NCBI GenBank assembly: GCA_017398595.1
Contig: JAFQFR010000020.1
Span: 9,196 to 73,195, forward strand
From: Clostridia bacterium
Lineage (GTDB): Bacteria > Bacillota > Clostridia > Oscillospirales > CAG-272
Length of the DNA: 64,000 nucleotides
Direction: 5' to 3'
Part shown: positions 13,023-59,744 of the stretch, one piece after another
Layout of the letters: each line of letters starts with the position of its first letter
Position numbering within the stretch: the first letter of the stretch is position 1
The notes under the pieces: model-generated
Database searches by the model: none
The model's input: only the letters and a program-made list of their open reading frames with translations
Told to the model about the DNA's origin: nothing
Translations under genes and position numbers: made by a program

Positions 13023-14996
13023 TTAGTTCTTCTTTTTCTTAAGAACAACTACAACGATTGCAGCTACTACAACAACTGCGATCACGATACCAACGATCAG
13101 ACCGACATTTGCGCCGTCATCCGTCGGGGTGGTAGCAGGAGCAGCAGTGGTTACTGCGGGAGCATCCGTAGTTGCAGGAGCATCCTCGGTTGCAACAGGA
13201 GCAACAGTGGTCTCTGCGGGAGCAACGGTAGTCTCTGCAGGAGCTACAGTAGTAACAGCTGCAGGAGCATCGGTGGTCGTCGCAGGAGCAGCAGTGGTAA
13301 CTGCCGCATCAGCAGTAGTCGTTGCAGGAGCAGTCGTAGCAACAGGCTCTACAGAGGGAGCTGCCGTGGTAACTGCGGGAGCATCCGTAACAACGGGAGC
13401 ATCGGTAACTACAGGAGCATCCGTAACTACGGGAGCATCCGTAACTACGGGAGCCTCGGTAACAGCAGGAACCTCGATTGCGCCTACGATCTCAGCGTTA
13501 GGATGGTAACCTGCGTTCAAGAGAACTGCCTCTTCGCCGTATACGGTAACCTTGAGGTTATCCCAGTAAGCGGTATCGAGGTTAACCTGTGCATCCATAG
13601 CTACGCGCATACGGAAACCGAAAGAACCTTCGTACCACTCGGAAATAACCTGGGTATCCGTCCAAATAACTTCATCGCTGCCTACTGCGGTAGCAGTGGT
13701 AGTGAACGTACCGTCACCGGGATAGGTAACCTTGATGTGGTAATTTCCACCGGGATTGATCACAGGCTCGCCTACAACCAGGTTTCCGCCCCAGTTGCCT
13801 TCCCAGTTACCATAACCTACTGCAAACTTGGTAGCATCGTTGGCAATAAAGGAAGTATAGCCGTAGAAAGAGTTAGAATTCGGACGGCTTGCTGCCTGAG
13901 ACAGGTCTGCATGCGTAAGAATACCTGCAGAAGTCTGTACATTGTAGATGTCTGCCTCAACGGTATAGTTCTTCAGCAGATTTGCATCATGGTTAGCCGA
14001 GTACAGAATGAAGGAGAAGTTAGAGGTTGCATCGAAACCGGAAGTCAGCGCGCTGTAGTACAGACCGCCGTTCTTGATGGTCCACTCACCGCGATACTGG
14101 GTGAAATCGCTGATGGTTGCGGGATCCGAGAAGTCATTCGAATAGAATACATACTCGCTCTTGCTTGCATCCAGCTTGGAGGACTCAACCTTAACAACCT
14201 CGGGAACGGTTACTTCGATCGCATCGGTATGTGCAACAACAACAGCGTTGTTCTCAACACCGGAATTGTAATCTGCAAGAGACTTGCCTGCTGCGAGCCA
14301 ATCGCCGACTTCGCCGATAGCGGTAACCTTCAGGTTATCAAAGCCGACAGCACCCATGTTGATCAAACCGGAGTTCATACCAACCATACGGAAACCGAAA
14401 GAACCAAGTGCCCACTCGTCATTCTCCATTGTATAGTTGAAAAGCTCTACACCGGTATCCTTATCAGTTACAATGTATGTAAGATTTTTGCCTTCTACTT
14501 TGCAGTAGAGGTGCAGGTTTGCACCGGGAGCAGTTACATCCGTACCAACATGCAGGTTACCCTTCCAGCCGTCGGAAGCATCTGCACGACCGATTGCAGG
14601 CTTGCTGCCGGTGAAGCTGAGGAACATCTGATAACCATAGAATGCATTGGACGTAGAGTTGTTCGCCTTGGTAATATCGCAGCGAAGCAGAGGACCGCCC
14701 TGCGACTGGACATTCATCATATCTACTTCCAGGATATAGTCAGTGAGGTTCATAACGCCCTGATCCTTGGTGTAGAGCAAGAAGAACTGCTGCGCAAAGT
14801 CCAGATCACCGACATCGGTCAGCATCAGCTGTCCGTCAACGATGCCCCATACGCCGCGGTACTGGGTGAAGTCTGCAAGAGTGTTTGCATCCGAAAAATC
14901 ATTTTCGTAGTAAACATACTCCGCAGCGTTCGCAGTCATAACCATGCCGAAAACGAGCAGAATGGTTGCAACTGCAATTGCCAAAAGTTTTCTCAT
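13023..14996 (-). CDS. Secreted, membrane-tethered protein A: signal peptide, two concanavalin-A/DUF1080-like lectin-fold domains, T/A/P/V-rich stalk, C-terminal TM helix and KKKKN
   Basis: 657 aa. Signal peptide MRKLLAIAVATILLVFGMVMTANA. The module EYV(Y/F)Y.NDFSD...FTQYRG.W.I..G.L is internally duplicated. Stalk contains APVVTD x4-5. Tail is DDGANVGLIVGIVIAVVVVAAIVVVVLKKKKN. GGAGG RBS present. Confidence 0.85.
   Translation of the reverse strand: MRKLLAIAVATILLVFGMVMTANAAEYVYYENDFSDANTLADFTQYRGVWGIVDGQLMLTDVGDLDFAQQFFLLYTKDQGVMNLTDYILEVDMMNVQSQGGPLLRCDITKANNSTSNAFYGYQMFLSFTGSKPAIGRADASDGWKGNLHVGTDVTAPGANLHLYCKVEGKNLTYIVTDKDTGVELFNYTMENDEWALGSFGFRMVGMNSGLINMGAVGFDNLKVTAIGEVGDWLAAGKSLADYNSGVENNAVVVAHTDAIEVTVPEVVKVESSKLDASKSEYVFYSNDFSDPATISDFTQYRGEWTIKNGGLYYSALTSGFDATSNFSFILYSANHDANLLKNYTVEADIYNVQTSAGILTHADLSQAASRPNSNSFYGYTSFIANDATKFAVGYGNWEGNWGGNLVVGEPVINPGGNYHIKVTYPGDGTFTTTATAVGSDEVIWTDTQVISEWYEGSFGFRMRVAMDAQVNLDTAYWDNLKVTVYGEEAVLLNAGYHPNAEIVGAIEVPAVTEAPVVTDAPVVTDAPVVTDAPVVTDAPAVTTAAPSVEPVATTAPATTTADAAVTTAAPATTTDAPAAVTTVAPAETTVAPAETTVAPVATEDAPATTDAPAVTTAAPATTPTDDGANVGLIVGIVIAVVVVAAIVVVVLKKKKN
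13376..13466. repeat. In-frame 18-bp tandem repeat (about 5 units) encoding APVVTD in the stalk of protein A
   Basis: gggagcatccgtaactac-type units read directly. The peptide is VTEAPVVTDAPVVTDAPVVTDAPVVTDAPAVT. Confidence 0.85.
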
Positions 14997-15216: not shown

Positions 15217-17166
15217 TTAATTCTTCTTTTTGAAAATCACTGCAGCAATTCCGACAACCGCAACCACTGCAATAACAATGCCAACGATCAAAACAACATT
15301 GGCGCCGCCTTCCACTTGTGTAGTCGCAGGAGCAACAGTTGTGGCAGGTGTATCTGTTACCGCAGGCGCTGCAGCCGTCTCGGAAGCAGTCGTTGTTTCT
15401 GCTGAAGCAGCCGTCGTAACTACGGGCGCTGCAGTAGTCTCCGCAGGGGCTGCGGTCGTCTCGGGAACAGCAGAAGTCTCTGCCGGAGCAGCTGTGGTCA
15501 CTGCGGGAACCGTACCGGTCGCAGCAGTGACTGCCGTGGTAACTGCGGGCGCTGCGGTGGTCGCAGCAGTCGTCTCTGCGGGTGCTGTAGTAGTCTCTGC
15601 CGGAGCCGCGGTCGTCTCTGTGGGAGCGACGGTAACGGCAGGAATGCTGATCTCCCCTACGATCTCTGCGTTGGGATGATAGCCTGCATTCAAGAGAACT
15701 GCCTCTTCACCATATACCGTAACCTTGAGATTGTCAAAACCGGTATTATCCAGCGAAACCAGGCTGTCCATAGCCGCACGCATGCGGAAGCCGAAAGAAC
15801 CGGTGGGCCATTCTGCGGTGACCTGCGTATCCGTCCAGATCACATCGTTACTGCCGACAGCAGTGATCGTATAGATCATCATACCGTCTGCACACTCAAC
15901 TTTAAGATGATAGTCTCCGCCGGGATTCAGAAGAGGTTCGCCGACTGTCAAGCTACCTCCCCAGCCGCCTTGCCAATCACAATAACCGGTCGCACCCTTG
16001 GTGCCGTCATTGGAAATGAAAGAAAGATATCCATAGAAAGAGGTCGCGGTGTCACTGTCTGCCTGCGACAGATCAGCGTGCGTGATCACGCCGGATGCCG
16101 TCTGCGAATTGTGAACATCGACTTCCAACGTGTAATTCTGCAACAGATTTGCATCGTGATTTCCGGAATACAGAATAAAAGTGAAGTTGCCGGTCTCTTC
16201 AAAGCCGGTCGTCTTCGCGCTGTAATACAGGCGTCCGTCCTTGATCGTCCATTCGCCGCGATACTGCGTAAAATCCGCGATCGTAGCAGGATCCGAGAAA
16301 TCATTCTCGTAGAATACATATTCCGTCTTGGTTGCGTCCAGCTTGGAAGCTTCCACCTTTACGACCTCGGGAACAGTTACTTCGATCGCCTCGGTAACCT
16401 TGGGAACGATAACATTCGAGGCAACGCCGGGCTTGTAATCCGCAAGAGACTTACCGGCTGCAAGCCAATCGCCGACTTCACCGATAGCAGTGATCTTGAG
16501 ATTGTCAAAGCCGAGAACACCAAGGTTGATCAAGCCGGATTGCATGATCGCAGCACGGAAACCAAACGAGCCGTACGCCCACTCATCATTGTCGAGCTCG
16601 ATCGTGTACAGCTCACTGCCGGTATTCAGATCGGACATTATATATGTAATATGGGTTCCCTCATAGGTTACCTTGAGATGCAGGTTGGCACCGGGATTGG
16701 TCACTGCGGGGCTGACGTGCAAATTTCCCGCATATGCACCAAGACCGTTGCCGCGACCGAACGCACTCTTAGTACCGTTGTTGCTGAGAAATGCTATGTA
16801 GCCGTACCAGCCGTTCTCCGTTTCCGCCTGCGCCTGCGTGATATCGCAACGAGACATCAGACACGCTGCAGATTGTGTATTCATCAGATCCACTTCTGCA
16901 ATATAGTCGGTCAGATTCATAACAGCAGGATCCGCAGTGTACAGCATGAACGCAAATTTACTCAGGTCTTCAACATCGCCCGGTCCAACCAGCATTAACT
17001 GTCCGTCAATAATATCCCATTCGCCGCGATACTGCGTAAAATCGGAAAGTGTCTTCGGATCCGAGAAGTCGTTTTCGTAATATACATACTCTGCCGCACC
17101 CACGGTCATAGCCATGCCGCATACGAGCAGGATCGATGCAATTACGATGGTCAAAATTTTTTTCAT
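15217..17166 (-). CDS. Secreted, membrane-tethered protein B (paralog of A)
   Basis: I trimmed the start to ATG 17166 (MKKILTIVIASILLVCGMAMTVGA, GGAGGT RBS). The two-domain architecture matches A, with shared blocks ITAIGEVGDWLAAGKSLADY and VTVYGEEAVLLNAGYHPNAEIVG. Tail is VEGGANVVLIVGIVIAVVAVVGIAAVIFKKKN. Confidence 0.85.
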   Translation of the reverse strand: MKKILTIVIASILLVCGMAMTVGAAEYVYYENDFSDPKTLSDFTQYRGEWDIIDGQLMLVGPGDVEDLSKFAFMLYTADPAVMNLTDYIAEVDLMNTQSAACLMSRCDITQAQAETENGWYGYIAFLSNNGTKSAFGRGNGLGAYAGNLHVSPAVTNPGANLHLKVTYEGTHITYIMSDLNTGSELYTIELDNDEWAYGSFGFRAAIMQSGLINLGVLGFDNLKITAIGEVGDWLAAGKSLADYKPGVASNVIVPKVTEAIEVTVPEVVKVEASKLDATKTEYVFYENDFSDPATIADFTQYRGEWTIKDGRLYYSAKTTGFEETGNFTFILYSGNHDANLLQNYTLEVDVHNSQTASGVITHADLSQADSDTATSFYGYLSFISNDGTKGATGYCDWQGGWGGSLTVGEPLLNPGGDYHLKVECADGMMIYTITAVGSNDVIWTDTQVTAEWPTGSFGFRMRAAMDSLVSLDNTGFDNLKVTVYGEEAVLLNAGYHPNAEIVGEISIPAVTVAPTETTAAPAETTTAPAETTAATTAAPAVTTAVTAATGTVPAVTTAAPAETSAVPETTAAPAETTAAPVVTTAASAETTTASETAAAPAVTDTPATTVAPATTQVEGGANVVLIVGIVIAVVAVVGIAAVIFKKKN

Positions 17167-26513: not shown

Positions 26514-26880
26514 GGGGGCGTAAAGGTTTCGACGGGGATTTTGAGGTATGATAAGCGGGTAGAGGTCGGGGATCCTCTCTAAAAGCTCCAACTTAAAATT
26601 AAACGCTAACGATAACGTAGCACTGGCAGCGTAAGCTGTGCCGCTGCTTTTTCAAGCAGCCCGTCAGACCGTTGAGGACCACGGCTTCGGATCTGGCGTC
26701 ATGCAGTGGTAAATGTGCACCGCCCGTTTGCTTTTGAAGCGGTCATAAAGAAAAAAGCTACCAAACCGTTACCCCCGTGCACCGGGGTGCGGCGCGGGAA
26801 ATCTTAAAGGTGTCCTGCACCCGGAGAAAGTTATATCAAGGGATTTTCGGACGGGGGTTCGATTCCCCCCGCCTCCACCA
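26514..26880 (+). ncRNA. ssrA: tmRNA (SsrA)
   Basis: The 5' end GGGGGCGTAAAGGTTTCGACGGGG pairs with the 3' end CGCCTCCACCA, including the G3-U pair. T-arm is GGGGGTTCGATTCCCCC. The tag reading frame is 26605-26634: gct aac gat aac gta gca ctg gca gcg taa, giving ANDNVALAA. Confidence 0.95.
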
Positions 26881-27041: not shown

Positions 27042-27066
27042 CAACTAAATCCACCCTTACGGGTGG

Positions 27067-27170
27067 GTGAAATATTGCTTCGCAATGTGAAATACGCCTG
27101 CGGCGTGTGAAATCGCTGCGGCGGTGGGTGGATTTAATTTCACATTTTGCCGCAAGGCAAAATATTTCAC
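27067..27170. repeat. Phased GTGAAAT heptamer array (3 direct copies at exactly 20-bp spacing, 1 degenerate, 2 inverted)
   Basis: GTGAAAT at 27067, 27087 and 27107. GTGGATT at 27128. ATTTCAC at 27137 and 27164. Each unit carries a different short GC hairpin (attgc-ttc-gcaat, acgcc-tgc-ggcgt, ttgcc-gcaa-ggcaa). Confidence 0.8.
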
Positions 27171-31530: not shown

Positions 31531-31566
31531 GTAACCGTGCGTTACAAAACCACAACCGTGCGTTGT
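31531..31566. promoter_or_regulatory. Two 15-bp palindromes sharing an AACCGTGCGTT core, 21 bp centre to centre, upstream of the ABC operon promoter
   Basis: gtAACCGTGCGTTac (31531-31545) and acAACCGTGCGTTgt (31552-31566). The minus-strand candidate promoter TTGCTT-17-TAAAAT lies immediately downstream toward 31459. Confidence 0.5.
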
Positions 31567-31569
31567 AAC

Positions 31570-31725
31570 AAGTATTTATAATAAAATCTTGTTTTAAAGA
31601 CGGACATGCGCAACCTAAAGCTGCGCTTTAGCTAGCTTTAAAACTCCTTGAAAACCGCGCCCGGTGAGGGCGTCGCGAGACTTGCGGTTTTGCTTTCTGT
31701 CGAAAAACCTTGGTTTTTCGACAGC
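31570..31725 (+). repeat. Structured intergenic repeat, copy A (three-hairpin element)
   Basis: Near-identical to the reverse complement of 43016-43151, apart from an approximately 20-nt internal indel. Stems are GTTTTAAAG/CTTTAAAAC, AAAACCGC/GCGGTTTT and GTCGAAAAACC/GGTTTTTCGAC. Confidence 0.85.
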
Positions 31726-31730
31726 TTCAA

Positions 31731-31763
31731 AAAAAGGTGCTCAACCGTGTTGAGCACCTTTTT
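31731..31763 (-). terminator. Terminator of the giant surface-protein gene
   Basis: aaaaaggtgctcaa-ccgtg-ttgagcaccttttt, with a T run on the minus strand. Confidence 0.8.
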
Positions 31764-31771
31764 GATCGTAT

Positions 31772-34700
31772 TTACTTTTCCAGATTTACGCAATAGCGCT
31801 GGAAGAGCGTCGCTACTTCGGCGCGAGTCGCATTGCTGCTCGGGTCGAAGACCTTATTATCCTTGCCCTGCATCAAGCCGTGCATCGTCATGTAGCATAC
31901 GGACTCATATGCCCAATCGGAGATCTCGGCACGGTCGGTGTAGTCGAGCAAGAACATCCACATGCCGGTGAAGCCGCCGCCATTCTTCTGAATGTAGCGG
32001 TACAGCATCGTTGCCATCTGTTCGCGGGTGATGCTGTCATCGGGCGCGAAGGTCGTCGCGTCATAACCCTGTACGATCCCCTCGGATGCCGCCCAGCGAA
32101 TAGCCTCGGCATACCATGTATCCTGATCCACATCCTCAAACCGCATCAGATAGTTGACCACGGGACTGCCCTCAAAGCGCCACAGCATCGTCACAAACAT
32201 CGCGCGGGTCGTCTCTGCACCGGGCATGAAAAGATCATCGGAGCATCCGACCATCAGACCATTGTCGAGGCAGTAATGCACGCCGTCGTGGTACCATTCA
32301 GATCTGTCGAGGTCGGTATAGCCGTACATCGGGCAGGTATTGTCACGCGGGCAAACCTTGACGGTCGCCTTGAACGTCACTTTGATATTGACCTTGCCGG
32401 TCGGCTGCTTGAAGCTGTACGTGCCGTCACCTTTGTCCGTAACAGTTACGGGATCGCCGTTTTTGTCGGTAACAATGATCTCGTCAACCTCATAGCCTGT
32501 ATCGGGAGCGGGGGTAACGGTTACAGTGTCGCCCTTTTCGGGTTTTGCGGGAGTCACGGTCACGTCACCGTTATCGCCGCTATCCACAGTGGGAGGATAG
32601 GTGGTAGTAGTAGACGTATTGCTCGAAACGTAGACACGGGTCCACTTTGCATAAAACGTCTTCGCACCGGTATCCGAAGCGGTGATCTCCGTTACGGGAG
32701 TACCCGTGCAGGCTTCGTTATCGTACCAGCCATCGAAGCTGTAACCGCTTCTCTTGACATTGGTCGGAAGTGTCGCGCCGATACCGTACGTGTACTCGGT
32801 TACATTGCCATCGCGGACCGTGCCGCCGTTTGTAACAAGCGTGACGGAGTAGGTATCAGCCGTCCACTGCACATAAAGGGTAACTTCACAGCCGCCGTTG
32901 CCATTGTCATCGGCAAACGTGAAGGTGTCGCCGCCGCTGTAGCTGTCGCCGCTGCCGTCAGCCTTCGTGTTCCAGCCGGCAAAGGTATGGTATACCCGGC
33001 TCGGCTGATTCGAGGACACCGTGATTGTCACTCCGCCGGTGTAATGGCTACCCGGAGCGTTTTCGCCACCGTTTGCATCATAGGACAGGGTGTTGGCTGC
33101 ATGAAGGATCTTGACATTCTGTGCCTTTTCGCCGACAGCAACGGATTCTGTTACGGTGATGCCGACATTGTCTTTGAGCGAAGCGGTCACCGCTACTTTA
33201 TATGTACCGCCGTCGGAGACGTTGCCGTCCAAACGCAAGACCGCATCGGTTGCACCGTCGATCGGTGTGCCGTCCTTATACCACTGATAGCTGTAATCCA
33301 GTACCTCGTCATTTCTGTTGCTGACTGTTGCCGTCAGGATACGGGTGGAATTACCGGGAACATAGTACTGGTAAGTGTCCGAGATCGCACCGGGTACTTC
33401 CAATGTGATCTTTACAGTCGGCGCAAGAACCTTTCGCTGTACAAACAGCGTATGATCTCCCGCAGTTTCAACAACTGTCAGCTTGCTGATCTTCGTATCC
33501 GTAACATTGCCGCTTTCATCCACCAGATACCAGTTGCTGTCACCGCCGGACAGACCGGTGATCGCAGAGGACGGGAGCTTGCCGTACTTCTCACCGAATG
33601 TTACGGTGATGGGATCGATCGCCGCACCGCCGTTTGCGTTAAACGAAACTGTGTAGGTGTTGGGGCTTACTGTCAGCGTGCCGTCCTGCAAAGTGAACGT
33701 GTAATTGTCGCTGACATCCGTTTCTTCAGAGTCTTTGACCACAGGCGTGCCGGAGATCGTGATGGTGTAAGTGCCTTCTGCGGTAAGATCGGCATCGGCG
33801 CATACCGCCGTGATACCGCTGACCTTAGGACCATCCTCTTCATCGTAACTTTCATCCCAACCGGTGACGGTGTAGGTGTATTCCGGTGCACTGCCGCCCA
33901 CGCTTACGCTCTTGTTGTCTGCCGTGATCGTCAGAGGACGCTTGGCAACCTCGTATGTTACAGAGGCGGTTACGCCATTGTAGGTGATGGAAGCCGTGTA
34001 AGTTCCCGCATTCACAGGATCTGCACTGTACACAATGTCCTCGGAATCAAGCGAGATCTGATCTGTGTATCCGTAGAGAGAAGCGGTATGCCACAGCCCC
34101 TCTGTATAAACAGCATCCTCGGGCGCAACGATCTGTACAAGCGCCACTTTTCCGTCCTTGGGACAGTTATCCTTGGTACAGGTAGCAAAGATAGTGTCGT
34201 TTTCGGTGATGGTCGTACCCAGCGTATAACCGCTTTCGTCAAAGACATGGACGTGCTCCAGCACCGTGAGTCCGCCGGAGATGGGATTGAAGTCGTAATT
34301 GTCGGCAGTCATTCCGTCAGTGTTGACTTCGATGAAGTAATACCCCTCTTTGGACATATCCGGCGTCTCATCATAGGTCAGCACGGGTGTGCCCGTGATG
34401 CCTGCCGTTTCCGCCGTCTCACCGTTTACAAATCCGGTAACAGTGTAGGTAGGCGTGGGGCAATCGTCGCCCACTTCGGCAAACAGATCGTCTGCCGTAA
34501 CGTCCAGCAATACTTTCTCAACGGTTGCTTCCACACAGGCGGGAGTGCTTTCATCGTTGTCGCCCAACGCCTTGTACCACACGTAGTAGGTACCGGCATT
34601 CGTTGCTGTGGGGATGTCGGTGCTCCAGCCGTCCGTGGGAGCAGTTTCGCCGTTATTACTCAGTGCATACTGCATCACGCCGCTGTAAGCAGTGCCGGCA

Positions 34701-37700
34701 GTGACAAGCGCCTGAGACTGTCCGGAGTAAGTAGGATATTCCGGATAAGGTTCTTCTTCCACCTCAGTAGCGAGAACAACATTTATCTTCTCCTCCCACA
34801 CCACATAGTAACTGACCGTCGGAGAATTACCGATCGCCACATCCAGTTCCACGATATCTGCGGCAAGATCGTACGCTTCAAAAACGGAAAATACTGCCTG
34901 CACAAGATTCGTGTTAAAGTTAATGTCATACGACGTATCTTTGCCGAAATTGATAGCTACGGGTATACAAGTCCCCGAAGAATTAAATATCAGCAAGTCT
35001 GTGGGGCCGAATTCCGTCATATTCTCGCCTTTGACCGTAATGATCAGAGGATGCTCTGTGCTGACGGTAAATGTCTTGGTATCGGCGTCGTATGCGGAGC
35101 TGTCGCTGTTGAACGTCACACTCGTGATCTTCGGCACAGCGTATTCCCCGGTATCTTTCACCACATCGTAATATCCGGTTTCCTTGTTATATACAGCACC
35201 GTATCCATCGGCTACCCATTCACCCGGGTGGACTATGAAGGAACCGCCAGTGATGGAGCAAGCGGCGTCAGGTTGGACTGTAACTACATTCTTGAAGGTG
35301 CCGCCGCTGATATTCAGCGTACCGCTAAATGCCCCAACTACACCTTCAAAAATACCGTCCTCGATCTTTGCCGTATTATTAAATGCCAGATACGGCTGGA
35401 AAACTCCGTCTCCAGCGGTATCTACGATGGTCAGCTGGCTATATGCCACAAACTGAGAGAAACCATTTTCTTCTGCGTCAATTACTTTTTTTCCGTTCAG
35501 GTCCAGGGTGAACACGCCGGAGTTGACCGTAAAGTCATATAGCGTAACGTCTTTCAGCAGCTTCAGAACCGCGTTATCCTCTGCGCTCGCATTTTCCAGC
35601 GCGGTCACAGCACTCTCAAGATCGGCGTAGAGCGTCGTCGTGCCGTTGGCGGTCACGGAAGCAGCCGCGTTATCGAGCGTGAGCTCCTTAAAGACTGCTG
35701 TCACAGTGACGTTGCCGGCAGGCATGGTGAAGGTGTACTCGCCGTCCTCGCCCTTGGTGGCGGTCACAGGGGTCTCGCCCTGCTTAACCGTCAGCGTATC
35801 CGGTACATAGCCGCCATCCGGCACGACCGTCACAGTGACGGTAACCCCTGCGGCGGCAAAGTTTTTATCCGCCATGACGAAGCCATTGGTGATACTGTCA
35901 TCCACCGTAACGCTGTATCCGACAGCATACTTCACCGTCTTGGCAGGGGTAAAGTTAGCATAGTCATCCTCGGTGCCGATGGAGGTATAGTAAACGCCGT
36001 AGGCTTCAAAACTGCCGGTCACATAGTCCGCAGGCTCGCTGACAGCCACTTTGTCCGTGCCGATGCCGCTGTACGCTGCGATGGCAGCCGTATTGCCGCT
36101 GATCTCAACGGGGGTGCTGACGGTCAGCATCCCGTTCGTGAAGATGCCGCATAAGCCGCCGCTGATCTTTCCCACCGTCGCGTTTTCCGCAAAGGTCACG
36201 CCGCTGTCCGCGTAGATGCCATAGCCGTATTGAGAGCTGCCGGTTATATCGCCCACTGTACCGCTGATGGTCACGCCACCGGTCGCGAAGATGCCGCAAT
36301 CGTTACCTGTGATGTCACCGTCTACCGTGCCGCTGACGGTCACACTGCCTTCGGCGTAGATACCGAGGCTGCTGCCGGTGATGTCACCCATGGTGCCGCT
36401 GACGGTCACACTGCCGACCGCGCCGATGCCCTTGCCGCCGGTGCCGGTGATCTGATTGGTGCCGATGCCGTAAACAATGAGGTCGCCTTTAGCCTGGGTT
36501 CCGTCGTCGCCGCCGTAATAGATAGCGGCATTCTTATATCCCTTGCCCTCATAGGTGTAGTTGTTGAGGGTCAAGGTATTGGTGTCGGGGTCGTAGGTTG
36601 CCGTACCGCCGTTTGCATCGGTGATAGTCAGCTTTGCGGAGTTGAACTGCTCACCGCCGACCCACAGAGAATATTTTTCTCCCCAGATCGCATAGAGCGT
36701 TATATTTTCCGTTACGTCAACCGTAGTGGTTGTTATCGCTTCACCGTCAGCGCTCAGTGCCCAGCCTGCGAACGCTTTATCCGTAGGCGCGGTGAAGCCG
36801 TTTGCGGGGAGTGTGTATTCGCCCGAAACGTCGGGTACATCATCCATCGTGCCCGTACCGCCGTTTGCGTTAAAGGAAACGGTGTAAGTAGTCGCGGGCG
36901 CCTTCGCCTCAAACACAGCTGTCAAATTGCGGTCAGCACTTGCCGTGAAGGCATAGCTTGCATCGGTGCTGACAGCACTGTCGTTTTCCGTCCACTTGAC
37001 GAAGGTATAACCGTCATTTGCAGTCGTCGTAACGGTAACGGACGCGTTTTCTTCGTACGTGCCGCTGCCTGTAACTGTACCGCCCTCTGCGGGAGATGCG
37101 GTGACGGCTACGGTGTAGGTGGTGGGTTTGGGGTCAGAACCGCCCTCGTTGAAATATTGCGGTGTGGCAGACGCATCGTGATAGACCACCTTACCGTCAA
37201 ACACCGGTGTCTCATGTGTCTTGAGCGTCTGATACCATACCAAATCATCCCCCTCGGATGTAGAACCGTTCAGGAGATAGCATACTTCGCCCGATGCAAA
37301 CTCCTCGGCGGTCTTACCTGTGACGCCGTTATAATCTGCATCTCCGACTGCGCCGTATGATGCGCCTGTTGTGTTATAATAGCAATTTGTCGCCGTTCCG
37401 CTTAAGTAACCGGCAAAATTTCCGAAAGCCCAATTGGAGATTGTGCCTGTTACAAGAATATCGCCATAGTTGTAACAATTCGTAATCGAGCCTGCAAAAG
37501 AACCGACCAAACCGCCGACTTGATTACTACTCGAATTGCTTCCCGATATAATTATGTCGCCGAGACTATAGCAATTTTCAATAACAGCATCACCGCTGGA
37601 TGTGCCGCTTCCTCTTCCGACAATACCGCCAAGAGGATTTCGGTTGGTTGAAACCCACACAATATCGCCTGTATTAACACATTTTTTGACAGTGGAAGCA

Positions 37701-38542
37701 TATGTCATATCACCGATAATACCACCGCCGATGCCTGCAGATAATATTTTACCCTCATTCCTGCAGTCTTCAATCACAGCTGTGCCGCCGCCCACAATTC
37801 CGGCTGCTCTTTCTGATGTGGCTTTTACGGTTGCCTTGTTGACGCAGTTTATAATGCTCCTTTTGGAAGCTGTTCCGCCGTCACTTGTGTAGCCGATAAT
37901 TCCGCCTACCCACGTGCTGCCAAGAATATATGAGTCATCCAAAGTGAGGTCTTTAATTGTAATCGCATTGGATAATGCAACAAATCCAACATACAGATCG
38001 GACGCGGTATCGGTTGACACAAGACCGCTTACGGTTTTGTTATTTCCGTCAAAAATTCCGCACATACGACTACGGCTGGCTCCGATAGGATTCCACTGCA
38101 AAAATGTGCCGGTGTTCAAATCGCCGTTAGCATCAAGAACATTTGTGTTGACGGTAATATCGTTTATCAGTACCGCATTGACTTTAACCTCGGTATATGC
38201 AAAATATTTGGTAGTTGTACCGATAGTTGCCTCATCAACACTCTTTGCAAACCAGTAAAGCTGACCTGCATTCTCGATCGCATAGTAGCCGCTATGCGAA
38301 GCATTTAACTCGGAGTGGTGTGTTTCACTCACCTGCTTCGCAGGCTGATAGTGTGTTGCATCTGCCGAGCAAAATCCGCTTGCATTATATGTTCCCGCAC
38401 AGTCTGTTGCGTCGCAAGGGGTGGTTGTGCTGCTTGCGGTTTCTGCACTTGCCGACAGCGTAAAGCCCGGCAGCATGCCCACCACCATGATGATAGCGAG
38501 CAGCATGCTCAGTATTCTTTTTGAAAATTTTGTTTTTGTCAT
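31772..38542 (-). CDS. Giant S-layer-homology-anchored surface protein (GLUG repeats, Listeria-Bacteroides repeats, beta-helix-like repeats, 3 C-terminal SLH domains)
   Basis: 2256 aa. Signal peptide MTKTKFSKRILSMLLAIIMVVGMLPGFTLSASA. GLUG-like GG(I/L)VG...I.NCYN.GDI repeats. YTVSFNANGG...F.GW repeats. The C-terminus has FEDVDQDTWYAEAIRWAASEGIVQGY and two further SLH units. Confidence 0.9.
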   Translation of the reverse strand: MTKTKFSKRILSMLLAIIMVVGMLPGFTLSASAETASSTTTPCDATDCAGTYNASGFCSADATHYQPAKQVSETHHSELNASHSGYYAIENAGQLYWFAKSVDEATIGTTTKYFAYTEVKVNAVLINDITVNTNVLDANGDLNTGTFLQWNPIGASRSRMCGIFDGNNKTVSGLVSTDTASDLYVGFVALSNAITIKDLTLDDSYILGSTWVGGIIGYTSDGGTASKRSIINCVNKATVKATSERAAGIVGGGTAVIEDCRNEGKILSAGIGGGIIGDMTYASTVKKCVNTGDIVWVSTNRNPLGGIVGRGSGTSSGDAVIENCYSLGDIIISGSNSSSNQVGGLVGSFAGSITNCYNYGDILVTGTISNWAFGNFAGYLSGTATNCYYNTTGASYGAVGDADYNGVTGKTAEEFASGEVCYLLNGSTSEGDDLVWYQTLKTHETPVFDGKVVYHDASATPQYFNEGGSDPKPTTYTVAVTASPAEGGTVTGSGTYEENASVTVTTTANDGYTFVKWTENDSAVSTDASYAFTASADRNLTAVFEAKAPATTYTVSFNANGGTGTMDDVPDVSGEYTLPANGFTAPTDKAFAGWALSADGEAITTTTVDVTENITLYAIWGEKYSLWVGGEQFNSAKLTITDANGGTATYDPDTNTLTLNNYTYEGKGYKNAAIYYGGDDGTQAKGDLIVYGIGTNQITGTGGKGIGAVGSVTVSGTMGDITGSSLGIYAEGSVTVSGTVDGDITGNDCGIFATGGVTISGTVGDITGSSQYGYGIYADSGVTFAENATVGKISGGLCGIFTNGMLTVSTPVEISGNTAAIAAYSGIGTDKVAVSEPADYVTGSFEAYGVYYTSIGTEDDYANFTPAKTVKYAVGYSVTVDDSITNGFVMADKNFAAAGVTVTVTVVPDGGYVPDTLTVKQGETPVTATKGEDGEYTFTMPAGNVTVTAVFKELTLDNAAASVTANGTTTLYADLESAVTALENASAEDNAVLKLLKDVTLYDFTVNSGVFTLDLNGKKVIDAEENGFSQFVAYSQLTIVDTAGDGVFQPYLAFNNTAKIEDGIFEGVVGAFSGTLNISGGTFKNVVTVQPDAACSITGGSFIVHPGEWVADGYGAVYNKETGYYDVVKDTGEYAVPKITSVTFNSDSSAYDADTKTFTVSTEHPLIITVKGENMTEFGPTDLLIFNSSGTCIPVAINFGKDTSYDINFNTNLVQAVFSVFEAYDLAADIVELDVAIGNSPTVSYYVVWEEKINVVLATEVEEEPYPEYPTYSGQSQALVTAGTAYSGVMQYALSNNGETAPTDGWSTDIPTATNAGTYYVWYKALGDNDESTPACVEATVEKVLLDVTADDLFAEVGDDCPTPTYTVTGFVNGETAETAGITGTPVLTYDETPDMSKEGYYFIEVNTDGMTADNYDFNPISGGLTVLEHVHVFDESGYTLGTTITENDTIFATCTKDNCPKDGKVALVQIVAPEDAVYTEGLWHTASLYGYTDQISLDSEDIVYSADPVNAGTYTASITYNGVTASVTYEVAKRPLTITADNKSVSVGGSAPEYTYTVTGWDESYDEEDGPKVSGITAVCADADLTAEGTYTITISGTPVVKDSEETDVSDNYTFTLQDGTLTVSPNTYTVSFNANGGAAIDPITVTFGEKYGKLPSSAITGLSGGDSNWYLVDESGNVTDTKISKLTVVETAGDHTLFVQRKVLAPTVKITLEVPGAISDTYQYYVPGNSTRILTATVSNRNDEVLDYSYQWYKDGTPIDGATDAVLRLDGNVSDGGTYKVAVTASLKDNVGITVTESVAVGEKAQNVKILHAANTLSYDANGGENAPGSHYTGGVTITVSSNQPSRVYHTFAGWNTKADGSGDSYSGGDTFTFADDNGNGGCEVTLYVQWTADTYSVTLVTNGGTVRDGNVTEYTYGIGATLPTNVKRSGYSFDGWYDNEACTGTPVTEITASDTGAKTFYAKWTRVYVSSNTSTTTTYPPTVDSGDNGDVTVTPAKPEKGDTVTVTPAPDTGYEVDEIIVTDKNGDPVTVTDKGDGTYSFKQPTGKVNIKVTFKATVKVCPRDNTCPMYGYTDLDRSEWYHDGVHYCLDNGLMVGCSDDLFMPGAETTRAMFVTMLWRFEGSPVVNYLMRFEDVDQDTWYAEAIRWAASEGIVQGYDATTFAPDDSITREQMATMLYRYIQKNGGGFTGMWMFLLDYTDRAEISDWAYESVCYMTMHGLMQGKDNKVFDPSSNATRAEVATLFQRYCVNLEK

Positions 38543-38688
38543 AGTACCAAATCTCCTATGGGGATCATTTCTTAGTGATAGACTTGTTCACACGCCCTAT
38601 AGGGCTTTTTTCTTTTTTTCATTCATATTTATATACTCCTATATTGCGACCAAAGAGGAGACCCCTTTGTGCCGTGGTTTACCTATAT

Positions 38689-39372
38689 TTAAAGTTCGCC
38701 TTCCAGATAGGCAAACATATCTTCTACCGTCTGCTTTGCGATCGCGGGGTAATCAAACTGCCCTACAAAGGCGATCGCTTCCTCTATTTTTTCCTCGGGG
38801 ATCCTGTACACCCGCAGACTCGTCTCCAAAAAGCGGTGTACCTTTCGCTCTATGGTAAAATACATATCGCACGGCAGTACCATATATTCGCGGATAATGC
38901 CGCCCGTGGCAAGTTCGAGTTCAAAAAAGTCCTTAGTATCAAAGTCCGGCAGATACTCCCGAAAGATCACCTGCACCAGCTTTTCCGTAACCGCACTGTG
39001 GATCATCGCCGCACTCTGCGGCATGGAATATGCCGCGCCATACAGGCTGCGGATCGCCTCGTCGCTCTCCGCAAGATAAAGCTGCAATGTGGTCTCTGCG
39101 GCGTAGTACAGCACGGGGTCCTCTGTCACGCCTGCAAGCATCTTTTTGGCAGCGGAAAACTGCCTGTCAAGCACGAAGCCGACCAACTCGCACAGGATCT
39201 GTTCCTTACTGCCGAAGGAACGGTTCATTGCGCTGATATGGACGCCCGCGGCGTCCGCGATCTCCCGCGTGGAAGACCTTTCATACCCCTTTTCCAAAAA
39301 CAGTTTTGCCGCCGCGTGCAGTACCCGGGAATGAAATACTGCGCGTTCTTGTTCGGATTTTACATTCGCCAT
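38689..39372 (-). CDS. TetR/AcrR-family transcriptional regulator
   Basis: 227 aa with the N-terminal HTH AAAKLFLEKGYERSSTREIADAAGVHISAMNRSFGSKEQIL. Confidence 0.9.
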   Translation of the reverse strand: MANVKSEQERAVFHSRVLHAAAKLFLEKGYERSSTREIADAAGVHISAMNRSFGSKEQILCELVGFVLDRQFSAAKKMLAGVTEDPVLYYAAETTLQLYLAESDEAIRSLYGAAYSMPQSAAMIHSAVTEKLVQVIFREYLPDFDTKDFFELELATGGIIREYMVLPCDMYFTIERKVHRFLETSLRVYRIPEEKIEEAIAFVGQFDYPAIAKQTVEDMFAYLEGEL

Positions 39373-41933: not shown

Positions 41934-42899
41934 TTAGTTCTTTTTCTTTTTGAGAACGATTACAACGATTGCAACGACTACAACGATCGCAGTAACAATG
42001 CCGATGATGAGACCGACATTAGAGCCGCCCTCCTCTGCGGGAGCGGTAGATGCTGCGGGAGCAGTCGTGGTGGGCGCAGCGGGCGCTGCGGTTGTAACTG
42101 CGGGAGCCTCTGTCGTCTCCACGGGTGCTTCGGTGGTTTCTGCGGGAGCAGCCGTCGTAGTTACAGCGGGAGCTGCGGTAGTCTCTGCGGGAGCAGCGGT
42201 GGTAACTACAGCAGGTGCTGCGGTCGTAACCACGGGAGCCTCGGTCGTAACAACAGGTGCGTTGGTTACAGCGGGAGCATTCTCATCGCCGTAGGTCAGC
42301 ACAGTACCGCCGAGGTTCTCGATGGTGAAGGTCTCTTGTGCAGCCTTGGAAAGGATCGCAGTGCCGCCGAGCTCAACGACGATCTTGTAGTGATAGTCAT
42401 TGCCGGGCTTGGTCTGCAGAATAACCGAATCCGTTACGGTAAGCGTCGTACCGAGACCGACCTTGATGGTGTTCTGATTGTTCTCCTGGAACAGAATGAT
42501 GTCATCAAAAACAACATTGCTCTGGAGCGTCAGCGTTGCACCGGTCGCCATCTTGAATGCGCAGGCAGGGTTCTCTGCGGGTTCGGGATTCTTGTAGTCA
42601 ACGCCGTTGTACACGCTGGTGATGGTCAGCGTATCGGACATTGCGGGCATGGTGTAGCTTGCGCCGAGATATGCTTTACCAACGGCAACAAGCGTACCGC
42701 CGTTTTGCAGCAGACTCATAACGCCGGCATCCTCAAAAGTCTTCCAGGACTTCTTGGGCGTATCGGGCGTCAGACCGTCATACGCGTCGTTTCCGCCCCA
42801 GCTGACATATGCAACCGTTTCATCCGCAGCAAACGCGGTCAGCGAAAAAGTGCACAACAAAAGCAGAGCTGCAAGCATAACAGAAAGAATTTTTTTCAT
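41934..42899 (-). CDS. Secreted, membrane-tethered protein C (short beta-helix-like domain, T/A/P stalk, TM helix and KKKKN)
   Basis: Start trimmed to ATG 42899 (MKKILSVMLAALLLLCTFSLTAFA, GGAGG RBS). Tail is EEGGSNVGLIIGIVTAIVVVVAIVVIVLKKKKN. Confidence 0.85.
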   Translation of the reverse strand: MKKILSVMLAALLLLCTFSLTAFAADETVAYVSWGGNDAYDGLTPDTPKKSWKTFEDAGVMSLLQNGGTLVAVGKAYLGASYTMPAMSDTLTITSVYNGVDYKNPEPAENPACAFKMATGATLTLQSNVVFDDIILFQENNQNTIKVGLGTTLTVTDSVILQTKPGNDYHYKIVVELGGTAILSKAAQETFTIENLGGTVLTYGDENAPAVTNAPVVTTEAPVVTTAAPAVVTTAAPAETTAAPAVTTTAAPAETTEAPVETTEAPAVTTAAPAAPTTTAPAASTAPAEEGGSNVGLIIGIVTAIVVVVAIVVIVLKKKKN

Positions 42900-42970
42900 A
42901 CGTACCTCCTTGATCATAGGCAAATCTGCCAATATCAATTTTATTATAATATAAGGAAAAAACCGAATCA

Positions 42971-43012
42971 ATGAAAAAACCACTGCAACGATGTGCAGTG
43001 GTTTTTTCATTT
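42971..43012. repeat. 42-bp direct repeat, left copy (terminator-hairpin sequence)
   Basis: atgaaaaaaccactgcaacgatgtgcagtggttttttcattt is identical to 43166-43207. Confidence 0.9.
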
Positions 43013-43015
43013 AAG

Positions 43016-43151
43016 GCTGTCGAAAACCAAGGGTTTTCGACAGGATACAAAACCGCAAGTCTCGCGACGCCCTCACCGGGCGCGGTTTTCAAGGAGTTTT
43101 AAAGCCGGCGCATGTCCGTCTTTAAAACAAGATTTTTATTATAAATACTTT
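43016..43151 (-). repeat. Structured intergenic repeat, copy B (inverted relative to copy A)
   Basis: Its reverse complement aligns with 31570-31725 and has the same three stems. Confidence 0.85.
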
Positions 43152-43165
43152 TTTGACAAGCTGTA

Positions 43166-43207
43166 ATGAAAAAACCACTGCAACGATGTGCAGTGGTTTT
43201 TTCATTT
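43166..43207 (-). terminator. Terminator of protein E gene; also the right copy of the 42-bp direct repeat
   Basis: aaaaaaccactgca-acga-tgtgcagtggtttttt lies 7 nt after the stop of the 43214-44551 gene. Confidence 0.8.
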
Positions 43208-44587: not shown

Positions 44588-45919
44588 TTATTTCTTTTTC
44601 TTAACATATACTACCACGATCACTGCGACAACGACTACAACCAGAGCGATACCGATGATCAAACCGATATTAGAGCCGCCATCCTCTGCGGAAGTAGTAG
44701 GAGCTGCGGTGGTCGTTGCGGGTGCTGCGGTAGTAACCGCAGGTGCCTCGGCAGTCTCTATAGGAGCGGCAGTGGTCACTGCGGGTGTTGCAGTCGTTTT
44801 TGCAGGAGCTGCGGTGGTCACTACGGGTGCTGCGGTGGTCACTGCGGGAGCTGCGGTGGTCGCTGCGGGAGCCGCGGTGGTCGCTGCGGGAGCTGCGGTG
44901 GTCGCTGCGGGGGCTGCGGTGGTCGCTGCGGGAGCTGCGGTCTGTGCGGGCGTTTCATCCGGGATCGCACTGACATAGTTGACCTTGTCAAAGAAGAGCG
45001 AAATGATCTTTGCATCTACATCGGCAGTTGCATTCAACGTTGCCGTACCATCAGTAACGAACATTGCTATTGCAGGCTCGACCGTCTTTTCTGCGTTGGC
45101 AACAGAACCGCCGGAGAAGTTGACCGTGGTCTTACCCATAACATTGTTGAGAGAAAGGAGCGTGACCATGCCGCCGCTGATGTTGACAGTGCAATCACCG
45201 TCGAGTCGGCGGGTTGCATCACCGGCAGTACGAAGATTGTTGATCGTGCCGCCCTTGATATTGATCACAGCATTGCCGGAATAGTTACCGTTAACGCTCG
45301 CACCGTATACAGTTGCTATTTCGCCGCCTTCTACAGTGATGTGCGCTGTTCCGACGAAAGAATACTCAGAGTTGCCGCGACTATGACCTGCTACCAGCCA
45401 ATAGTTGCCACTCTTAACCGTAACATCGGAATCCAGATCAAATACAGCTGTATCGGTCAAGGGAACCTGATAACCGCCGATAACGTACGCTTTACCGCTT
45501 GCATCAAAGGACAGTCCTTCACCAAGAACCAACTTGTTATACTGTGCGATGATCAGCGAAGTAGTGCCCGCACCGTACTCAAAAGACATGTTCTCAAAAG
45601 TGGTGGAACCGGGACCGCTGAGGAACCAGCGATTGTACTGCCCCTGTGAGAACACATACTTGCCGCCGGTGATCACGATGTTGCCGACATGCTCGGGCTC
45701 GTAATACTCTTCTGCGCAAGTGTAGGTGTCAACGATGATGACCTTACCGCCGTCCGCACCGATCTTATTGATCGCATCGGTCATGCTGCCGAGCGGCGCA
45801 TCCGCCGAGGAACCGTCGCCGGTACCGCCATCGTTGACGTAAACATCTGCTGCGGATGCCGCTACCGCAAGCATCATGCAAAGCAGTGCCGCCAGAAAAA
45901 TGCCAAGAAACTTTTTCAT
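44588..45919 (-). CDS. Secreted, membrane-tethered beta-helix-like protein D (paralog of E with T/A/P stalk, TM helix and KKKK)
   Basis: Start trimmed to ATG 45919 ([31 protein letters not shown]). Tail is [32 protein letters not shown]. Confidence 0.85.
44803..44948. repeat. In-frame 24-bp tandem repeat (about 6 units) encoding AAPAATTA in the stalk of protein D
   Basis: ggagctgcggtggtcgctgcggga-type units. The peptide is [36 protein letters not shown]. Confidence 0.85.
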
Positions 45920-47268: not shown

Positions 47269-47339
47269 GTATTTATACCCCCTTGTGATACGCAAATAAA
47301 ACCTGTGGTTATGCAGGCTTTATTTGCATAGCATTGTAT

Positions 47340-50300
47340 TTATTTGCAGAAAATATCAAACATCGCAACCGGGAAGTTGGTCACATCCAGCTTTCTTGCC
47401 TCTTCGATGTGCTCCTTTGCCTGGATGACTCTGCCGAGTCCCAGTTCACCGAATGCCATGAGAACCAGTCCCTTGACGGTATTGATCTTCGGGAAGTTGT
47501 ACTCAAACGGGCAGGGGCAAGGCGAACCAACACCGTAGTATGCGCTGACATCTTTATCCTTGATCTTCTGCTTACCGGCTGCGATCATCTGCTCGCACAG
47601 TGCGCGTGCAGCGCTGATCTCGCCCGCTTCATAGAAAGCAAGTGCGCGGAAGTAGCTGATCTCGGAGGGAGCGGCGGTATCGTTCATCGCCGCGGCAAGT
47701 GTCTCAGCATATGCTTTCTCATCGCCGAGCGCCTTGTATGCCATAGCAAGACCGTAGTTCAGGTGATTTTCCTGTGCGAAGTAGTTCTTCTCCTCGCCGT
47801 AGCAGAGCGGGAATACAAAACCATTCTTGTATGCTTCGATCGCTTCGGCGTATTTGCCCTCGTCAGCAAGCTTCTTGCCGATGAGCGTCATCAACCATGC
47901 ATGGTGACGGGTGAGGTTGCCCTCGCCGCCCTCGTAGGTGTGGAACCAATGTGCGTCGAGAAGCGCCTTTGCTTCGTCATATCTGCCAAGCTCGGTGAGC
48001 AGGATGGAGTGATCCAGCGTACAGTCATCGCGCATTGCGCTCATTGCCGCATACTTTTCGTGCAGTGCGAGTCTCTCCTCTACGCTCTTGCCGCCGTTCT
48101 TGTAGAGCTGCGCAAGTTCGAAGAAAATGCGGTCATTCTGACCGTTGTCGAGTTCGAGTGCTTTTCTGAGCATCTTCTCTGCACCGGTGAAGTCCTCGCG
48201 CTTGTCGAAGTAGGCAAGGCCGAGGTTGCGGCATGCGGGTACCAGACCGCCGACTTCCTTGTCAGCAGCTTCCCACATTGCGATCGCATCCTCATAGCGG
48301 CGTCTGTCATAGTACAGGCAACCGAGGTAGTACTTCGCCATGCCGGTGTTGGCAGCCTTCAGTACGGCAATATCCTCGAGACGTGCGGGGAATGCACATG
48401 CCCAGTCGCACTTATCGGCGATCTCGTAGTACTTCTTGTCGCCCTTGAGATAACCGAGGTAGTAGTTGACCATCGGATTCTTTGCATTTGCTTTTTCGAG
48501 GATCGCAATTGCCTTGTCGGTCATGCCGGCGTTCATATACTCGATCGCACGGTCAATGTAGTACTCGTGCTTTTCGGGAAGTACGTCGAACAAGGGGTCG
48601 ATCTCCTTGATCTTTGCAAAGAGCTCCTTGTCACCGGTGATCTCTGCCTTGAGTTTCATAGCCTCAAGGTTCATCGTGCCGACAGACAGGCAGATGTCGA
48701 GCTTCTTAACCGCTTCGTCAAAGTCGCCGCGGATGCAGTCGATGCCTGCAAGTGCATAGTAGCCTGCCGCGATATAGTCATAGCTCCAGATGCTGCGATA
48801 GAAATAATTGTACGCTTCATCGAGCTTACCGAGGTAACGGAGCGCAAGTCCCTTATGGTAGAGTGCCTCAACATCGTAAGGGTTGTCGTTGCGAAGCGTC
48901 AGACGCTTGATCGCCTTGTCGTAGTACTCGATCGCTTCTTCAAATCTGCCCTCTTTCAGGCGGATGTTACCCATTGCGGTGTTGCAGCGGCTGTCGCCGT
49001 CGTCTCTCTTCAGCGCTTCGAGATAGTAATCCGTGGGCTCATATGCGAAGTGCTTATACTGCTCCAGATGCTTGCCGTTGATGAAGAGTTCTTCGTTCGT
49101 CTTGATCTCACAGGGCGGCAGAGCGGGCTTTCTGGGTTCGATCGGCTTCTTGTGACCGCGCTCGAAGTATCTGTAGTCTACAAGTTTTACTCCCTCAGCA
49201 TCGGTGAAGTCCACCGAAACCTTCTTCATGTCGAGATCCTTGATCTCGTAGTACTTGGTAAAGGTAGTCTCGGGAGAGATCACTGCGATCGTCTCATCGA
49301 TCACATCTTCGCCGTGACGGATCACCAGCTTTGCATTCTTGTACTCACCGGTAGCGTATACGCCGACGAAGAGCTTGCCGTCGCGCTCCTCCACGTTGAT
49401 CGCAGCGTCAATGGTCGCATTCTTGGTCTCACCGATGTCCTTTACGGGATACCAGTACTGCTCAAAGGTCTTGGTCTCATACGGCATGATCCAGGTGAAG
49501 TCAGGCTGGTTATCGGTGTAGACACCGGTCATCAGCTCAACATACTTGGAGCCGTCATCGGTCAGGTTGGAGCACCACTTATCACCGAAGGGGTGATTGC
49601 CCCAGTGCCAGAGCTTCTTACCGGGGGAGATGTGGTGATTGGCAACGGTAACGATACCGCATTCTCTGCCTGCATCGTATCCGGAAATGTAGTCGTGGTC
49701 GCACTGTCCCTTGGAAACGAGGTAAGAGGAAGGTACGCGAACGTTTGCGAGGTTGTGAATGTCGGTGCCATCGCCGAAGTCAAACGGACGGGCGGTGTGG
49801 TATACGCCCTTTGCGATCGGCCATTCGAGTACCGCACGGCGGTCGTGGTCGTTGACCCATTCAACATCCGGCGGGAATACAACGCGGTAATCCTCGTTGA
49901 TCTCTACCGCGAGGTTTGCCCACCACATGAAAGGCTGCGGATACGGCGTGCGGTTGTAGATCTGTACTTCCGCTTTGAAATAGGACTTACCGGGCACGAT
50001 GGTGATACCTGCCATGCCCTTCATGCGCAGAAGCGGATCGACCTCGCCGACCCATGCGGTCTTTTCGCCGTTTTCACGCTCGGTGATGGTCGCTTCGAGC
50101 GGCATGTATGTAGTCGGACGGTGATGCTGCGGCCAGTTGAACTCGATACCGCCGGAAACCCAAGGTCCTGCCAGACCGACCATTGCGGGCTTGATCACCT
50201 TGTTGTGATATACGAAGTCGTAGTTGTTGGTCTTATCCAGTGCGCGCTGGATCTTACCGCCGATCTCGGGAAGAACCTCCAGCTTGATGTACTCGTTTTC

Positions 50301-50492: not shown

Positions 50493-50606
50493 TTTCTTAT
50501 CTCCCAAAAGATTTTTGAAATTTTGTTTTTCTATACTTTGATTGTAGCACCTTGCCCAAATATTCTCAATATCAATAAATTTTTTACCGATTTTTGCACT
50601 TTTGTC

Positions 50607-50635
50607 TTGACAAAACAGCATTGCCGCGCTATAAT
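50607..50635 (+). promoter_or_regulatory. Candidate sigma-A promoter of the hybrid regulator gene
   Basis: TTGACA (50607-50612), a 17-nt spacer, then TATAAT (50630-50635). Confidence 0.55.
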
Positions 50636-50676
50636 AATAAGCCAAATTGCATTCTTGCCTAAACGGGAGGTACTGT

Positions 50677-59738: not shown

Positions 59739-59744
59739 CACTAC

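Follow-up and report, generated by a model that had tools for sequence, protein, structure and literature searches.

A probable MITE-like element bracketed by duplicated intrinsic terminators in an uncultured lineage of Clostridia

Copies, limits and ends of the repeat

The stretch of DNA analysed here, a window of 64 kb, carries between its genes two copies of a sequence that folds into three hairpins, raising the question of whether this repeat is a structured RNA, a host repeat, a recombination site or a mobile element. A repeat search and alignment confirmed that there are two copies and that they are reverse complements of each other, with copy A (E_A, 166 nt) on the + strand at 31563..31728, as delimited by alignment with copy B and a further copy C, and copy B (E_B, 152 nt, complete) on the − strand at 43013..43164. 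Covariance model scores were 176 and 161 bits for copy A and 140 and 183 bits for copy B. The original prediction, which had placed the repeat at 31570-31725 and 43016-43151, was right about its existence and drew its limits too short.

An unfiltered covariance model built from copies A and B retrieved no third copy from the 64-kb window. Past the left edge of the window, an extension of ~10 kb reached via MurG (locus L041) revealed copy C (E_C) at L041 13289-13448 on the window − strand, with a score of 99.9 bits for model R1 and 155.7 bits for model R2. Copy C belongs to the same organism and lies ~1.5 kb beyond the window in the spacer between ftsZ and dpaA, so that the repeat is not limited to the two copies described at the outset; three copies are known. 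Their flanks are unrelated, and their orientations relative to the neighbouring genes differ.

Alignment of copies A and B revealed a core of 57 nt (GCTTTAAAAC...GCGGTTTTG) with 100% identity, and the 43-nt sequence of hairpin 2 occurs exactly twice in the 64-kb window versus zero times in shuffles. The indel of about 20 nt that had been noticed in the first loop is present and could be specified as a 21-nt palindromic insert in the hairpin 1 loop of copy A, accompanied by two substitutions; three further substitutions are found in the 7-nt linker preceding hairpin 3.

The limits of copies B and C were set by flanking duplications. On this basis, E_B runs on the − strand from 43164 to 43013 (ACAGCTTGTCAAAAAAGTATT...GGTTTTCGACAGCCTT) and E_C from GAAAATTGCCGAAAAAGTATT to GTTTTTTGACAGTTTC, as read from these repeats. 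Both copies start with TTGYCRAAAAA on the left, to which TTTTYGACA on the right corresponds in inverted orientation, though imperfectly, with TGYCRAAAA as the common core. The match comprises 9-14 imperfect, A-rich nucleotides with a shuffle p of ~0.04 in each of B and C, and no such match is present in the truncated copy A. The right repeat doubles as the 3' arm of hairpin 3, and the five outermost nucleotides are unlike between B and C, whereas conservation in a typical MITE family is highest at the tips. With this modest support, the ends would qualify as short imperfect terminal inverted repeats (TIRs), situated partly beyond the coordinates first given, at odds with the statement that the element has none.

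The coding capacity of the 152-166-nt copies is restricted to one TTG-started open frame, which is not conserved past 23 aa and for which no relative was found among 5.8 billion proteins. A 1255-aa ORF elsewhere in the window (47334-51101, +), without Pfam match, was rejected as the shadow of a 1050-aa DUF5107/TPR gene on the opposite strand, as evident from the gene calls of locus L024.

In Rfam 15, no family matched the element at gathering score, which agrees with the view that the repeat family had not been catalogued before. The best sub-threshold scores were those of rpsL_ricks (33 bits, threshold 60) and NmsRb (31 bits, threshold 52), reflecting in part generic consecutive hairpins including the flanking terminator. 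The only Rfam matches of the window are a tmRNA at 26514-26880 (161 bits), a Gut-1 RNA 160 nt later at 27042-27118 (95 bits), with smpB adjoining this region in relatives, and a lysine riboswitch at 59743-59915. Directly upstream of the latter lies an inverted repeat (59498-59676) with 81-nt arms that are 73% complementary and 17 nt apart.

Pattern searches of GTDB species representatives (TTGAAAACCGCGCCCNNNNNGGGCG) and JGI metagenomes (TTGAAAACCGCGCCCGGTGA) returned chance matches only, and these negatives are weak, the patterns having been placed on the outer stem of hairpin 2, which copy C revealed to be the most variable part of the element. Viral contigs, queried with various sub-motifs including the end motif, gave chance matches or none, and BLASTN against phage and plasmid collections gave no match. 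Neither a transposase nor a full-length parent was found in the host genome, of which ~74 kb were covered, or in the other loci retrieved (including L024 and L041). The same ~74 kb contain no gene for a reverse transcriptase or Cas proteins, and no recombinase, Y1 or RAYT gene is nearby.

Duplicated terminators and empty sites

A terminator scan bore out that the copies are intergenic and lie next to terminators. For copy B, the adjoining terminator had been recognised, and it had been missed that two exact 43-nt copies of it bracket the element as direct repeats. This palindromic intrinsic terminator, T_B (AAATGAAAAAACCACTGCACATCGTTGCAGTGGTTTTTTCATT), is present on the − strand upstream of E_B at 43165..43207, where it was terminator-like in the scan, and again downstream at 42970..43012, followed by the promoter of a 322-aa gene, so that the preceding gene is closed by one terminator copy, and the second copy separates the element from the promoter of the following gene. 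The same arrangement was found for copy C, where exact 30-nt repeats of T_C (AAATGCAGACCGGAAACGGTCTGCATTTTT), a terminator unrelated to T_B, flank the element at L041 13259-13288 and 13449-13478. In both complete copies, the duplication spans the palindrome from foot to foot within ~1 nt. With two unrelated palindromic terminators as targets of B and C, and a third terminator adjoining copy A, we conclude that the element inserts at palindromic intrinsic terminators.

The state of the ftsZ-dpaA spacer before insertion was read from three related genomes, L045, L046 and L047, which were picked by FtsZ identity (98, 96 and 94%). The element is absent from this position in all three, and their spacers measure 103-126 nt versus 291 nt in the filled site. 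L045 and L047 possess a single terminator homologous to T_C, the place of which is taken in L046 by an unrelated hairpin. Where the element is present, the native flanks are divided between the two T_C copies, with AATACATAAAA to the left of the upstream copy and CACGCATTT to the right of the downstream copy. Since L045 and L047 combine a single terminator with matching outer flanks, the element together with one terminator copy (190 nt) constitutes an insertion, and the terminator is the target-site duplication of the element.

The element is likewise absent from the loci of copies A and B in relatives L017-L023, whose ABC-transporter orthologues are 88-91% identical. The terminator that follows the Cu-amine-oxidase-domain gene in these relatives is the one that follows the 322-aa gene in the window. 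Two blocks of the window are missing from the same 88-91% relatives. One, at 31772-39372, contains a TetR regulator and a 2256-aa SLH/Flg_new surface protein, and no matching repeat was seen at the other end of this island near 39.4 kb. The other, at 41934-42902, encodes the 322-aa Thr/Ala/Pro-rich surface protein and has copy B just upstream. Tandem repeats of 18-21 nt at 13030-13500, 15220-15640, 41940-42280 and 44590-44960 encode Thr/Ala/Pro-rich linkers of a family of at least five secreted or anchored paralogues, several of which share the C-terminal anchor GGSN(V/I)GLIIGI...KKKK. The idea that the segment between copies A and B is invertible was dropped, as its gene order and orientation match those of the relatives.

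Copy A is an altered copy. Its 3' end adjoins T' (31729..31765), a bidirectional terminator hairpin that closes the 2256-aa gene, which hairpin is present once and differs from T_B, leaving copy A without an upstream terminator copy and without a duplication. Its left end is truncated, with the outer part missing, and at TTGT/TTGTA the homology to E_B starts exactly where the flank homology to the empty locus of the relatives stops. Copy A is located at the edge of the strain-specific island comprising the TetR gene and the 2256-aa SLH surface-protein gene. This configuration points to a secondary rearrangement by which copy A would have lost its outer left end and the upstream duplicate; rearrangement-linked IS insertions without duplications are known (bioRxiv 10.1101/2024.06.02.596822). 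Copy A abuts two tandem small hairpins with AACCGTGCGTT (31533-31566). These closely precede the −35 box of the ABC-transporter promoter, are kept as a hairpin pair in relatives (L017 9893-9930) and are probably a regulator binding site or an insulating terminator.

Several metagenome assemblies from the ruminant gut contain the organism, and their copies A and B are identical to those of the window. Copy B is present in three other assemblies, the contigs of which break inside it, as evident from the ends of L024, L026 and scaffold_937 (window ~43134-43150 and 43048). The contigs of these assemblies end where A and B diverge, i.e. at AAGTATTTATAATAAAA, at GCGGTTTTG or in the terminator, which is the behaviour of a dispersed repeat that fragments assemblies. 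Repeats of this type break metagenome assemblies and can pass for tandem terminators or for genes of sRNAs.

Owing to the duplication, neither ftsZ nor the Cu-amine-oxidase-domain gene loses its terminator upon insertion, and the downstream promoters stay intact and shielded from transcription leaving the element. These promoters comprise TTGATT-17-TATAAT in front of the 322-aa gene and, upstream of dpaA, a CATACAATA box that is sigma-K-like by eye. This mode of landing is nearly neutral for the host, and an insertion that is near cost-free would explain the persistence of the element next to essential genes such as ftsZ.

Conserved pairing and the weighing of rival readings

Minimum free energy (MFE) folding recovered all three consecutive hairpins that had been described for each copy, and the folds of copies B and C revealed the same architecture independently. 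In copy A (+), hairpin 1 (31591..31644) consists of a 9-bp AU-rich basal stem GTTTTAAAG/CTTTAAAAC and a variable distal part. Hairpin 2 (31651..31691) has the outer stem AAAACCGC/GCGGTTTT enclosing GCCC-GGTGA-GGGC, as previously stated, and additionally a GTC-GCGA-GAC tetraloop hairpin, so that it is a three-way junction. Hairpin 3 (31697..31724) has the form CTGTCGAAAAACC-TT-GGTTTTTCGACAG in the MFE fold and the alignment. The corresponding parts of E_B on the − strand are hairpin 1 at 43128-43096, hairpin 2 at 43090-43048, hairpin 3 at 43043-43017 and TATAAT at 43143-43138. In line with the earlier description, the stem of hairpin 3 is preserved in copy B, with one A:T pair lost and the stem intact. 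A resemblance of hairpin 1 (GTTTTAAAG...CTTTAAAAC) to an sgRNA/tracrRNA or a CRISPR repeat was discarded, given the lack of cas genes and of an Rfam tracrRNA match, as was an IS110 bridge-RNA-like guide, for which inspection by eye gave no convincing match between the variable stem and the target terminators and only three copies are available.

Covariation was counted on a four-row alignment (A5) of three independent sequences with five helices and 40 pairs, in which 98.7% of the cells are paired. Seven of the 40 pairs are changed on both sides, all of them in copy C, so that the covariation sought after the original prediction is indeed present. The outer stem of hairpin 2 accounts for five of these changes among its eight pairs (AAAACCGC/GCGGTTTT to AGGGGCAC/GTGCCCCT), the inner stem for one among its four pairs (GCCC/GGGC to GCAC/GTGC) and hairpin 3 for one pair. 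None of 500 shuffles reached the observed level, and slid registers gave 0-2. Hairpin 1 is identical in B and C; copy A shares its basal stem and differs distally. No difference among the three copies was seen in GTCGCGAGACTT, in the loop GGTGA or in the linker TCCTT. All pairs are of the Watson-Crick type except for one G-U pair in hairpin 1 of copy A, which fits the + orientation only. In one assembly (ERZ28653886; L025 9797-9948), copy B carries a single C-to-A exchange (GAGACTT to GAGAATT) that breaks the closing pair of the GUC-GCGA-GAC hairpin, representing either a polymorphism or an assembly error near the contig end. The alignment provides strong but not final support for selection on the hairpin pairing, the cause of which may be a requirement of transposition or the function of a transcript.

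A transcript would be in accordance with the AT-rich end of the element, where the TATAAT noticed early on is conserved in all three copies as part of the invariant −10-like box TATAATAAAAT (31577..31587, +). Two ordinary genes of the window have the same 10-mer as the −10 of their promoters. A −35-like box (TTGTAA, TTGTCA or TTGCCG) is situated 8, 10 or 22 nt from the −10, i.e. without consistency, with a 13-nt insert between the two boxes in copy C, and a consensus promoter scan revealed a weak promoter for B and nothing for A or C. The box TATAATAAAAT may belong to a real sRNA promoter, or it may be what is left of the promoter from which a parent IS expressed its transposase.

Among the readings of these data, a MITE-like, non-autonomous transposon of ~150-165 bp that captures cruciform or hairpin targets and was recently active in this uncultured lineage of Clostridia is, in our view, the probable one. 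Target-site duplications and empty sites, together with putative imperfect TIRs, describe a transposon-like insertion, contrary to the earlier opinion that the element is not a classical MITE. Counting against this reading are the failure to find a transposase or parent in the ~74 kb and the fetched loci, the modest TIR support with tips that differ between B and C, the small number of three copies, the lack of a duplication at copy A and for IS1272 itself, and the covarying internal hairpins, which a plain DDE cut-and-paste mechanism leaves unexplained. The pairing would be accounted for if the element were mainly a mobile sRNA gene, with transcription starting just after TATAAT, passing through the three hairpins and stopping at the host terminator that the insertion has duplicated. 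A complete and insulated sRNA gene would arise with every insertion, and selection would preserve the RNA, a view that is compatible with mobility. This alternative, which we regard as tentative and less probable, draws on the invariance of TATAATAAAAT and its match to the −10 of real promoters, on TCCTT, GGTGA and GTCGCGAGACTT staying invariant while the stems covary, on a terminator within 6-8 nt 3' of every copy, on a single-stranded CUCCUU linker that is complementary to the Shine-Dalgarno sequence, and on the orientation of the G-U pair in copy A. It is weakened by the inconsistent −35 spacing and the blank promoter scan for A and C, by the remaining pairs being Watson-Crick, so that the transcribed strand is not fixed by pairing, by the lack of an Rfam relative, and by the fact that TATAAT in a MITE could be a leftover of the transposase promoter of the parent IS. 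A small structured RNA as a second layer on a mobile element is possible. The fully self-contained version of a mobile sRNA gene, with its own −10, a selected RNA, and a terminator and an upstream insulator gained by duplication, appears slightly more doubtful still.

The remaining explanations fare considerably worse. Target-primed reverse transcription gives long target duplications of variable length and selects for RNA structure, so that a retro-element moving through an RNA intermediate would fit duplications of 30 and 43 nt as well as stem covariation suggestive of an RNA-level constraint. It is nevertheless improbable, since the duplications match palindrome feet and are not arbitrary, the copied unit holds two parts that would be missing from the transcript of that promoter, namely the −10 box and the putative left terminal repeat, and there is neither an A-rich or other defined 3' tail nor a reverse transcriptase in 74 kb. 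Even less likely are two of the options put forward originally, a host repeat of the REP/BIME type and a site for site-specific recombination. In their favour, the element is intergenic, hairpin-rich and close to terminators, and the window copies are inverted and bracket 11.6 kb. No defining feature of the REP/BIME family was seen, the element exceeds a REP unit by far in size and complexity, and site-specific recombination does not duplicate its target, whereas the target duplication and the empty sites found here point to transposition. The genes between A and B include syntenic ancestral genes with unchanged orientation, and no recombinase or RAYT gene is nearby. A cis-regulatory leader, i.e. 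a riboswitch or attenuator of the downstream gene, would explain why B and C are upstream of the next gene in the same orientation with a terminator between, but it is hardly credible given that the gene next to copy A is convergent with it, so that the element is directed at the 3' end of this gene, that the downstream genes are unrelated (surface protein, dpaA) and have their own promoters after the terminator, and that relatives have the same genes without the element.

Proposed mechanism and comparison with known systems

For the preferred transposon reading, we infer a transposase supplied in trans, which would recognise an extruded hairpin or cruciform and not a sequence. Such an enzyme could join each end of the element to one foot of the palindrome, the feet being adjacent in space, and gap repair would then copy the whole stem-loop. 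Repair of the stem-loop would make the duplication length a property of the hairpin, giving 30 nt in one case and 43 nt in the other. With ordinary DDE transposition, target duplications have a fixed length in the range of 2-13 bp. For the duplication of a whole palindrome of 30 or 43 nt, hairpin capture and joining at the feet would be the simplest explanation.

The hallmark of this new MITE-like element is the targeting of terminators with duplication of the whole terminator, combined with a structured, covarying core. Under the mechanism outlined above, whole-terminator duplication would be direct genomic evidence of a bacterial transposition system that reads the shape of DNA, a hairpin or cruciform, and not its sequence, and it would reveal that the ends of the element become joined to the feet of this structure. 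The structured core, if transcribed, would make the element a rare mobile sRNA gene, and if that reading is true, transposition itself builds a complete, harmless transcription unit. The covariance model of the element allows a direct survey.

Like the bacterial MITEs Correia, RUP, BOX, ERIC and Nezha, the element is small, non-coding, AT-rich, intergenic and highly folded, and it shares with them a target duplication and a patchy occurrence among close relatives; its short imperfect ends may correspond to their TIRs. Known MITEs, however, have fixed duplications of 2-9 bp and fold mainly end to end, whereas the duplications of the element measure 30-43 bp, as determined by the structure of the target, and its folding consists of three local hairpins, the loops of which are conserved. 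From IS200/IS605-derived PATE and from REP/BIME, it is distinguished by the long target duplications and by the absence of a Y1 or RAYT gene nearby. SPRITE, a Firmicute repeat of ~150 nt with very short TIRs, is enriched at gene 3' ends, and its mobilising enzyme is unknown (PMC3049150). While SPRITE itself looks like a terminator and has no known target duplication, the element is no terminator, but inserts at one and duplicates it.

Cas1-Cas2 performs a staggered attack at the borders of an often palindromic repeat of ~30-40 bp and thereby duplicates the repeat around the insert. The repeat-insert-repeat geometry of spacer integration and of casposons equals the terminator-element-terminator order found here, as an analogy of outcome only. 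Unlike in the Cas1-Cas2 system, the insert is a defined 150-nt element with putative end repeats of its own, the targets are ordinary terminators, and no cas gene is present in 74 kb.

The IS1182 family has direct repeats of 0-60 bp in ISfinder and includes some palindrome-targeting members. By analogy with its members IS1272 and TnSha1, the element may be assigned IS1182/IS1272-like behaviour. IS1272/TnSha1 target terminator hairpins without sequence specificity (PMC4923244); in staphylococci, their targets are inverted repeats downstream of genes, with insertion in either orientation and terminal repeats of ~16 bp (PMC4923244, PMC5678879). The element shares the preference for stem-loops, mostly intrinsic terminators, irrespective of primary sequence. 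It differs from IS1272, an autonomous IS of 1.9 kb, in its size of ~150 bp and the lack of an ORF. Upon insertion of IS1272/TnSha1, the hairpin is replaced or partly deleted and no duplication is left (PMC5678879, PMC4923244). In the model for IS1272, a hypothetical 'pathway b' with joining at the 5' feet leads to a second copy of the entire stem-loop (PMC5678879, Fig 13). Unlike IS1272, the element described here duplicates the intact hairpin, which is the outcome of this pathway (PMC5678879), so far drawn for the IS1272 group as a hypothetical one only.
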